Assembly (NCBI GenBank): GCA_000002445.1 | Contig: CP000071.1 | Span: 1,728,001 to 1,792,000, forward strand | Length of the DNA stretch: 64,000 bases | DNA from: Trypanosoma brucei | Taxonomy: Eukaryota | Direction of reading: 5' to 3' | In this document: positions 32,257 to 33,366 of the stretch, in pieces | Numbering within the stretch: position 1 is the first letter of the stretch | How the letters are laid out: each line of letters begins with the position of its first letter | Notes under the pieces: generated by a model | Told to the model about the DNA's origin: nothing | Database searches by the model: none | The model's input: the letters and a program-made list of their open reading frames with translations, nothing else | Translations under genes and position numbers: made by a program

Positions 32257-33366
32257 ATGGGTATGGGTCTCACCGGGATATGCCTCGCACTATTGGTTGC
32301 AGTTTTCTCCTACACGGTGAACTGGGCACACTTCGACTTTAGTCTCGAGAGTAAGAGCCCGCATAACAGCGGCTGTTTGGAAAAGCCGCTTTGTGATGGC
32401 CAGGTTAGTTTTATGGGGAGAGTTAAATGCCAGCTCTTCACCTACCCCGTCGATGTGGATAGACACGACTACAAGCGTGACGTGATGGGGAGGTTGGCAA
32501 GGCTCTTGCAAAAGGGTCTTAAAGGACAACCGCATGTGGTTGAGGGTGTAAAGGGAGATATCGCGGTCAAACTAGCAAATCCGGGGAGGCCTTTAGTGTT
32601 ACACTTCGCGGGTGACAATGGGGTGGGGAAAACGACGCTTGCGCAACTCATATCCCTTGCTCTCGCCTTTCGCTGCCGTGACATGTCGTGCCTGGTGGGT
32701 GATACCTCCCTTGTGCTTTCCGGAGTAAGCTACGACGGTTACTCAGTGACAGACTTCCGCAGCGATGTGGTGCAGAAAATTGTGGAACACGCCAAGCGGT
32801 ATCCACGAAACGGTGTTGTTATAGTCAACGACTTGAATGGCTTGCATCCGGATCTGGTGCGCGTTCTCCTTCCGCTATTCGGTAGGGCAACGACATTCCC
32901 CGAGGCCTCTGACGCGCCACTCAACTACTTGACGGTGATAATAACAACAGACTTTGGTCGCCAAGGGCGAACACGGGGGAAGAGCTTATCAGATATGCGA
33001 CGTATCGTAGAAAGTGATTTTAAGAGTCTCTACTCGCAACTTTCTTCGTCTATGATACAAACCTATCCTTTCCTACCAGCGTCGTTGTCGACTGCGAGGG
33101 AAATAGTCCGAGCAACCGTCGATGGGTACCGCTGTGATAGTCGGCACGGGATTGGCAAACTGGATGTTGATGATGAGGTAGTTGAGTGGTTTATTGATTT
33201 GGTGAAGGACGATTTACCAGCGGAAAATGGACGTTGTGTTTCCAAAGCCGTGGTTGGAGTCGTTGGGCCCGCCGTGTTGCAACATCTCTCCAGCAGGTTA
33301 CCGAGTCTTGCCTCGCTGCGTGTGGTGCTTGATAGCGACGGCTCAGTTGCCGTGCGCGAGAACTAA
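32257..33366 (+). CDS. Torsin-like AAA+ ATPase with an N-terminal signal/anchor sequence
   Basis: The ORF-track start at 32191 is a TTG. From the first ATG the protein has a hydrophobic N-terminus, Cys-containing pre-ATPase linker, P-loop (LVLHFAGDNGVGKTTLAQ), Walker-B-like (GVVIVNDLNG), sensor-1-like (LTVIITTDFG) and a C-terminal YPFLP motif; the spacing and motifs resemble the torsin/ClpB-type P-loop, mid region and C-terminus. Confidence 0.62.
   Translation: MGMGLTGICLALLVAVFSYTVNWAHFDFSLESKSPHNSGCLEKPLCDGQVSFMGRVKCQLFTYPVDVDRHDYKRDVMGRLARLLQKGLKGQPHVVEGVKGDIAVKLANPGRPLVLHFAGDNGVGKTTLAQLISLALAFRCRDMSCLVGDTSLVLSGVSYDGYSVTDFRSDVVQKIVEHAKRYPRNGVVIVNDLNGLHPDLVRVLLPLFGRATTFPEASDAPLNYLTVIITTDFGRQGRTRGKSLSDMRRIVESDFKSLYSQLSSSMIQTYPFLPASLSTAREIVRATVDGYRCDSRHGIGKLDVDDEVVEWFIDLVKDDLPAENGRCVSKAVVGVVGPAVLQHLSSRLPSLASLRVVLDSDGSVAVREN

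Follow-up and report, generated by a model that had tools for sequence, protein, structure and literature searches.

Within a 64,000-nucleotide stretch of Trypanosoma brucei chromosome 8 (GenBank assembly GCA_000002445.1, contig CP000071.1, forward-strand positions 1,728,001 to 1,792,000; hereafter the window, in whose own numbering all T. brucei positions are given), we analyzed the gene Tb927.8.6020, which a preliminary description made from the sequence alone had read as encoding a torsin-like AAA+ ATPase with a signal sequence. Our analysis confirmed the existence of the gene and its sequence features, and leads us to consider its product, with good but not complete confidence, an endoplasmic reticulum (ER) and nuclear-envelope AAA+ ATPase of the lineage that links the second domains (D2) of Clp/Hsp100 proteins to animal torsins. 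The gene is the following.

32257-33366, + strand: complete open reading frame (ORF) of Tb927.8.6020, 369 amino acids plus stop, encoding a torsin-like/Clp-D2-like AAA+ protein

The ORF runs from an ATG at 32257 to a stop codon at 33364-33366, and its identity and start codon were fixed by the TrypTag tagging primers for Tb927.8.6020, which match its first and last codons exactly (32257-32302 and 33327-33363). An exact-sequence look-up returned an identical 369-amino-acid T. brucei protein (Q57YK3/AAZ13366, labeled 'hypothetical protein, conserved / AAA+ ATPase domain-containing protein'), and we therefore rejected the idea of an unannotated T. brucei gene, which had been suggested by a 100% match found only in Logan. 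All ORFs of at least 250 amino acids in the window lie on the + strand, which fits a single polycistronic unit. A word-indexed search found 56 homologues of the protein at E≤1e-3, and an exhaustive profile search returned 718 cluster representatives at E<1e-10, 73 of them at E<1e-30, far exceeding what a chance origin of the ORF or its motifs would yield. Literature searches that included the gene identifiers found no functional study of Tb927.8.6020.

The encoded protein is one AAA+ module with the ClpB-D2/TorsinA fold. The elements named in the preliminary description were all present: a hydrophobic N-terminus, a Cys-containing linker, a P-loop (residues 119-126), a Walker-B-like strand (residues 187-192), a TTDFG motif (residues 230-234) and a YPFLP motif (residues 270-274). 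The segments that it had likened to segments of TorsinA were moreover aligned with each other by hhalign. The features of the ORF are as follows.

32263-32319, + strand: N-terminal hydrophobic segment, residues 3-21, MGLTGICLALLVAVFSYTV, a signal peptide or uncleaved signal anchor
32374-32430, + strand: Cys-x5-Cys-x11-Cys linker (C40, C46, C58) ahead of the AAA+ core, invariant in 28 of 28 relatives
32611-32634, + strand: Walker A GDNGVGKT, residues 119-126, with the canonical K125-T126
32674-32691, + strand: Cys pair C140/C145 in an extended alpha1-beta2 loop (RCRDMSC), invariant in both kinetoplastid paralogue groups
32722-32745, + strand: short beta2-alpha2 linker GVSYDGYS, residues 156-163, at the site of the Clp-D2 GYVG pore loop (secondary structure from a model)
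32815-32832, + strand: Walker B strand VVIVND, residues 187-192, with N191-D192 in place of the D-E pair
32941-32985, + strand: sensor-1 strand ITTDFG and then the family signature G-R-T-R-G-K-S, residues 229-243, with Asp232 replacing Asn
33025-33096, + strand: segment around beta5, residues 257-280 (…SSSMIQTYPFLP…), with no Lys or Arg; S265 occupies the Clp arginine-finger column
33085-33291, + strand: helical small subdomain, residues 277-345, with the invariant C293 and the sensor-2 motif E-N-G-R326

Residues invariant in the 28 relatives comprised C40, C46, C58, G119-T126, T230, G234, G237, G241, F272, C293, N324 and R326. Six cysteines (40, 46, 58, 140, 145 and 293) were invariant across both kinetoplastid paralogues, and the three linker positions were Cys in 130-143 of 164 members of a wider family described below.

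We compared these motifs with those of Clp-D2 and of torsins such as human TorsinA (PDB 5J1S/6OIF), which are reported to have a GxxxxGKN Walker A and to lack both an arginine finger and an aromatic-hydrophobic pore loop (PMC7175109). The alignments show that the nucleotide-binding motifs of Tb927.8.6020, the Walker A GKT and the sensor-2 Arg, are intact, and that its hydrolysis motifs are non-canonical. Its Walker A is GDNGVGKT, as compared with GWTGTGKN in torsin and GPTGVGKT in Clp-D2, and its sensor 2 is N-G-R326, as compared with G-C-K in torsin and G-A-R in Clp-D2. N191-D192 stands where torsin and Clp-D2 both have D-E; the 'DLN' that the preliminary description cited as a degenerate Walker B (residues 192-194) is one residue out of register. 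All Trypanosoma orthologues share the N-D pair, Leishmaniinae have N-E at this site, and D-D is found in ERIKA (T. brucei Q382P2; PMC10903960), the kinetoplastid paralogue that carries a signal peptide and ends in DL. At sensor 1, Asp232 replaces the Asn of torsin and Clp-D2, and an Asp is found there in 154 of the 164 wider-family members. The insert between sensor 1 and beta5 is 32 residues long, ~20 shorter than the 53 of torsin.

Both omissions that characterize torsins were found. No Lys or Arg occurs between K256 and R281, leaving the protein, like torsins, with no arginine finger of its own. Position 268, a Gln in T. brucei but an Arg in Leishmania and ERIKA, was considered as a candidate finger and rejected, because the Clp finger column is S265, three residues upstream, and because just 55 of 164 family members have Arg at 268. 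The beta2-alpha2 linker, which in one alignment spans 8 residues, as compared with 9 in torsins and 17, including GYVG, in Clp-D2, contains no G-aromatic-hydrophobic-G motif and is in this respect torsin-like. In place of the Clp D2 catalytic set (D-E, sensor-1 Asn, arginine finger and GYVG), Tb927.8.6020 has N-D, Asp232, Ser265 and the 8-residue linker. Separately, we observed that in most Trypanosoma species, including T. brucei but not T. vivax or T. grayi, a Cys (Cys327, 33235-33237) directly follows the sensor-2 Arg; the resulting G-R-C faintly recalls the torsin G-C-K redox motif, and the Cys is found in 11 of 164 family members.

The compartment also corresponds to that of torsins. Residues 3-21 form the sole segment with a 19-residue Kyte-Doolittle hydropathy >1.6, and this N-terminus (~19-21 residues, uncharged, and without a basic n-region) is kept in all orthologues. 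In the TrypTag resource, tagged Tb927.8.6020 (N-terminal tag) was found in the ER plus the nuclear envelope, a check that the preliminary description had proposed. Tb927.8.6020 is thus targeted to the ER, and it shares with torsins both an N-terminal signal or hydrophobic sequence and ER/nuclear-envelope residence. For the Leishmania infantum orthologue A4I131, a signal peptide has been predicted with a score of 0.9936 by a kinetoplastid-trained predictor (Table S12, PMC10903960). We infer that the AAA+ domain faces the lumen. The C-terminus, ...VAVREN, has no KDEL-like ending.

To place the protein among AAA+ families, we compared profiles. The ClpB-D2 similarity that the preliminary description had proposed to look for was found: the family profile matches ClpB nucleotide-binding domain 2 across both the large and the small subdomain (E 5e-18, positions 75-355). 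On the Clp/Hsp100 D2 profile PF07724 (AAA_2), the single Tb927.8.6020 sequence scores only 17.7 bits, below the cut-off of 27. The exhaustive search revealed a wider family, most of whose members are 320-480 amino acids long with a signal-like N-terminus and a Walker A of the form hhHFAGDNGVGK(T/S), and in which a C-terminal xDEL, xEL or xDL is very frequent. Identifiable members include Dictyostelium Q55FE2, Polysphondylium, the euglenid Ploeotia and Bodo. No GKN-type torsins were among the best 150 matches of this search, and Clp-length proteins first entered it at ~E 1e-17 to 1e-19. In hhalign comparisons, the Tb927.8.6020 clade matched Clp-D2 at E 1e-22 and vertebrate torsin-1 at E 1.6e-3, and the wider protist family matched Clp-D2 at E 2e-36 and torsin at E 9e-24. 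Because Clp-D2 and torsin matched each other at only E 5e-16, this wider GDNGVGKT family is the closest torsin relative among the groups compared. Individual members bridge the gap to torsins on Pfam Torsin (PF06309): one reaches 52.9 bits, and the orthologues of Tb927.8.6020 in T. cruzi and T. rangeli score a borderline 27.6 and 27.0 bits. In a neighbor-joining analysis, 154 of 200 bootstraps placed torsins inside the GDNGVGKT family and away from Clp, but with saturated distances (>2.9 substitutions/site) and vertebrate torsins only, this nesting is suggestive at most.

Several observations weigh against a close tie to torsins or against our assignment of location and topology. The GKN Walker A (PMC7175109), present as GW(T/A/G)GTGKN in 10 of the 10 torsins that we compared, is not found in Tb927.8.6020, nor is the redox sensor-II Cys motif (G-C-K). 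The PF06309 search proposed in the preliminary description gave 18.1 bits, below the gathering cut-off of 27, and PF21376 gave no match. Tb927.8.6020 scored 7.8 bits on a vertebrate torsin-1 profile versus 40.2 bits on a Clp-D2 profile; the torsin scores are conservative, because that profile contained only vertebrate torsin-1A/1B, which were all the torsins among the best 120 matches of a TorsinA homologue search. As for location, the TrypTag tag sits ahead of the signal and so shows ER targeting and not topology or native steady-state location, and C-terminal tagging yielded no cell line. A4I131 was not found in the SignalP6 table (S5 Table, PMC10903960), its signal peptide being positive only in that paper's own Leishmania-trained predictor. 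Judged by family-defining motifs, then, Tb927.8.6020 is not a torsin and is nearer to Clp-D2 in sequence. The torsin-like identity originally put forward is partly supported, in that architecture, fold, compartment and key losses correspond to those of torsins and the defining motifs do not.

The preliminary description's claim that a protist torsin-like protein would be novel is outdated, because kinetoplastid torsin-like proteins were described in silico in 2024 (PMC10903960). The alignment in that study includes orthologues of Tb927.8.6020 from T. rangeli, T. conorhini, L. infantum and L. major, together with proteins from Dictyostelium, Acanthamoeba and Ectocarpus, and does not include the T. 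brucei member. The closest homologues that we found were a T. rangeli protein (64% identity) and the L. donovani orthologue of A4I131 (48% identity), with N-terminal sequences the same as those aligned in that study for A0A422N6P1 and A4I131, respectively. By orthology and by its ending, Tb927.8.6020 is what that study classifies as the 'conventional torsin' of kinetoplastids, the paralogue without KDEL. The Trypanosoma members of this group and ERIKA are 35-40% identical over ~80% of the protein (hhalign E 6e-72) and have in common GDNGVGKT, TTDFG and the six-Cys pattern. Unlike Tb927.8.6020, ERIKA is 440-560 amino acids long, has an insert after Walker B, ends with an xDL retrieval signal rather than ...VREN, and combines its D-D Walker B with a sensor-2 His rather than Arg.

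The gene order Notchless, desaturase, …, Tb927.8.6020, RPL12, …, aminotransferase is kept in L. donovani and Bodo saltans. The syntenic B. saltans protein (A0A0S4KNW8; CYKH01001954.1, 10001-11116) ends in …MSDL and was listed under the KDEL-bearing ERIKA (PMC10903960), but by synteny it is the positional orthologue of Tb927.8.6020. Because the Bodo protein ends in …MSDL and the T. brucei protein in …VREN, the ancestral protein probably had a KDEL-like signal that has since been lost in the short trypanosomatid paralogue. What our analysis adds to the published account is the motif-by-motif description, this synteny evidence of KDEL loss and a candidate cofactor.

How might such a protein work? 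The invariance of Walker A and of the sensor-2 Arg makes ATP binding likely, and intrinsic hydrolysis is probably weak, because the Walker B is N-D and the arginine finger is absent. With no pore loop, substrate threading would be unlikely. By analogy with torsins, the most economical model is a switch in which a partner would have to provide, in trans, the arginine needed for hydrolysis, and the protein would probably remodel membrane-associated protein assemblies instead of threading polypeptides. Given the trypanosomatid loss of the KDEL-like retrieval signal, its retention may rest on an uncleaved N-terminal anchor or a membrane partner. The motifs that suggest weak hydrolysis (the N-D shared by all Trypanosoma orthologues, the sensor-1 Asp and the missing finger) are also what would be expected of a catalytically dead pseudo-ATPase that binds only nucleotide, or nothing, and acts as a structural or regulatory subunit. 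We consider this unlikely, since neither Walker A nor the sensor-2 Arg varies within the paralogue group, the catalytic Glu is kept (as N-E) in the Leishmaniinae orthologues, the sensor-1 Asp is a family-wide signature rather than a sign of decay, and the ATP site was judged intact in the earlier study (PMC10903960).

An autonomous luminal disaggregase or unfoldase of the ClpB/Hsp104 type, threading its substrates through a hexameric pore, would account for the greater sequence similarity to Clp-D2 than to torsins and for the canonical Walker A and sensor-2 Arg, which are as in ClpB. It is nonetheless very unlikely for a protein that consists of one AAA+ module and has no N- or M-domains, whose 8-residue linker has no GYVG pore loop, whose Clp arginine-finger column has no Lys or Arg at or near it, and whose Walker B and sensor 1 carry N-D and Asp. 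Still more improbable, to the point that we give it little credence, is that the protein is anchored in the ER membrane with its AAA+ domain in the cytosol rather than in the lumen. The length of the N-terminal hydrophobic run and its lack of a basic n-region would suit an anchor of this kind, and localization with an N-terminal tag is blind to orientation. However, the six cysteines are invariant in kinetoplastids, a signal peptide is predicted for the Leishmania orthologue, and the KDEL-like C-termini of the syntenic Bodo orthologue and of proteins throughout the family make sense only in the lumen.

A luminal ATPase without its own arginine finger, as we favor for Tb927.8.6020, would call for a partner, and a candidate lies three genes (~4 kb) downstream.

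37192-37953, + strand: candidate cofactor Tb927.8.6050, 253 amino acids (Q57YK6/AAZ13369)
37426-37482, + strand: its single transmembrane helix, residues 79-97
37534-37941, + strand: its predicted luminal, P-loop-less AAA+-like domain, residues ~115-250
37897-37917, + strand: its invariant LPHRVVH motif (R239)

We assigned this ORF to Tb927.8.6050 because AAZ13366 to AAZ13370 map consecutively onto genes 6020 to 6060. Its N-terminus is conserved, basic and resembles a nuclear localization signal (MPPKRPPRARRTKE…), and its C-terminal domain, which has neither a P-loop nor a small subdomain, contains four invariant cysteines and the invariant motifs LKELLEDNxLRG and LPHRVVH. The invariant R239 lies five residues before beta5, the canonical position of an AAA+ arginine finger. 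TrypTag gives the location of N-terminally tagged Tb927.8.6050 as 'nuclear envelope, endoplasmic reticulum[weak]', and LOPIT assigns the protein to the ER (Table S3, bioRxiv 10.64898/2026.04.03.716285). In these respects it resembles the torsin activators LAP1 and LULL1, which are likewise type II membrane proteins at the nuclear envelope with a luminal AAA+-like large subdomain only, no P-loop, and a conserved Arg just before beta5. For Tb927.8.6050, searches of Pfam and PDB gave no sequence match, no sequence homology to LAP1/LULL1 (Pfam LAP1C) was found, and we rejected sequence kinship to the torsin-like family, torsins or Clp-D2 (hhalign probability ≤4%). A literature search found no functional study of LAP1/LULL1 in trypanosomes.

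Tb927.8.6050 is an orphan trypanosomatid protein, and in L. donovani a clear homologue (hhalign E 1e-29) is encoded at the syntenic position. In T. brucei the gene lies between a PPR gene and the aminotransferase gene (36176-38446). In L. donovani (15762-17927) the cofactor-like gene follows the PPR gene and is followed by a large gene, with no aminotransferase gene there. A syntenic cofactor gene was absent at this position in B. saltans, in which the PPR gene abuts the aminotransferase gene (12786-13608). By analogy, Tb927.8.6050 is possibly a torsin-activator-type cofactor, and as such a new and testable lead. A two-part nuclear-envelope machine with a split active site, in which R239 of Tb927.8.6050 would activate the finger-less Tb927.8.6020, ERIKA or both in trans, is a conjecture that we put forward tentatively and would not yet bet on.

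Other features of the window can be noted briefly. Just upstream of Tb927.8.6020, 30758-31258 (+ strand) encodes a 166-amino-acid multi-pass hydrophobic protein annotated as 'T. brucei spp.-specific protein'. Upstream of the torsin-like gene in Leishmania and Bodo lies a DUF5522/Cob_adeno_trans gene, directly adjacent in Bodo and with an intervening 175-amino-acid gene in Leishmania. A 310-amino-acid ORF overlapping the 3′ end of Tb927.8.6020 (33227-34159, + strand) is an artifact that arises from an in-frame ATG further upstream; the gene actually present, for ribosomal protein L12 (164 amino acids), starts at 33665. Further downstream, 40762-45000 (+ strand) encodes a highly charged 1412-amino-acid protein that by eye appears to form a coiled coil, in a purine-rich region with an AT skew of +0.29; at its position are a ~1400-amino-acid gene in L. 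donovani and a 918-amino-acid gene with a faint CCDC39 match in Bodo. The region 47500-53000, which is gene-poor and, at a GC of 0.34-0.39, AT-rich, contains low-complexity repeats of polypyrimidine and polypurine and is probably a long untranslated or intergenic region.

Torsins, usually regarded as metazoan proteins with metazoan cofactors, have been described as the sole AAA+ ATPases within the ER and nuclear envelope (PMC7175109). Trypanosomes carry a torsin relative in the same compartment with both key omissions, the arginine finger and the pore loop. If Tb927.8.6050 does activate it in trans, the pairing of an ATPase with a degenerate-AAA+ cofactor in the perinuclear space would not be a metazoan invention, and would either date to early eukaryotes or have arisen twice. 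The most useful result is the concrete candidate cofactor at the nuclear envelope, which makes a pre-animal origin of trans-activated luminal AAA+ machines testable in a tractable organism with closed mitosis.

Set beside the known systems, Tb927.8.6020 has in common with torsins the lack of an arginine finger and of a pore loop, a targeting segment and luminal cysteines, and differs from them in keeping Clp-like nucleotide-binding motifs and in having a signature of its own, the sensor-1 Asp and GRTRGKS. Compared with Clp/Hsp100 proteins (ClpB NBD2, ClpA D2, ClpC D2 and Skd3/CLPB), it lacks D1, N- and M-domains as well as the GYVG pore loop and the arginine finger, its Walker B and sensor 1 are non-canonical, and it is further set apart from their D2 domains by its secretory-pathway targeting segment and its luminal cysteines.
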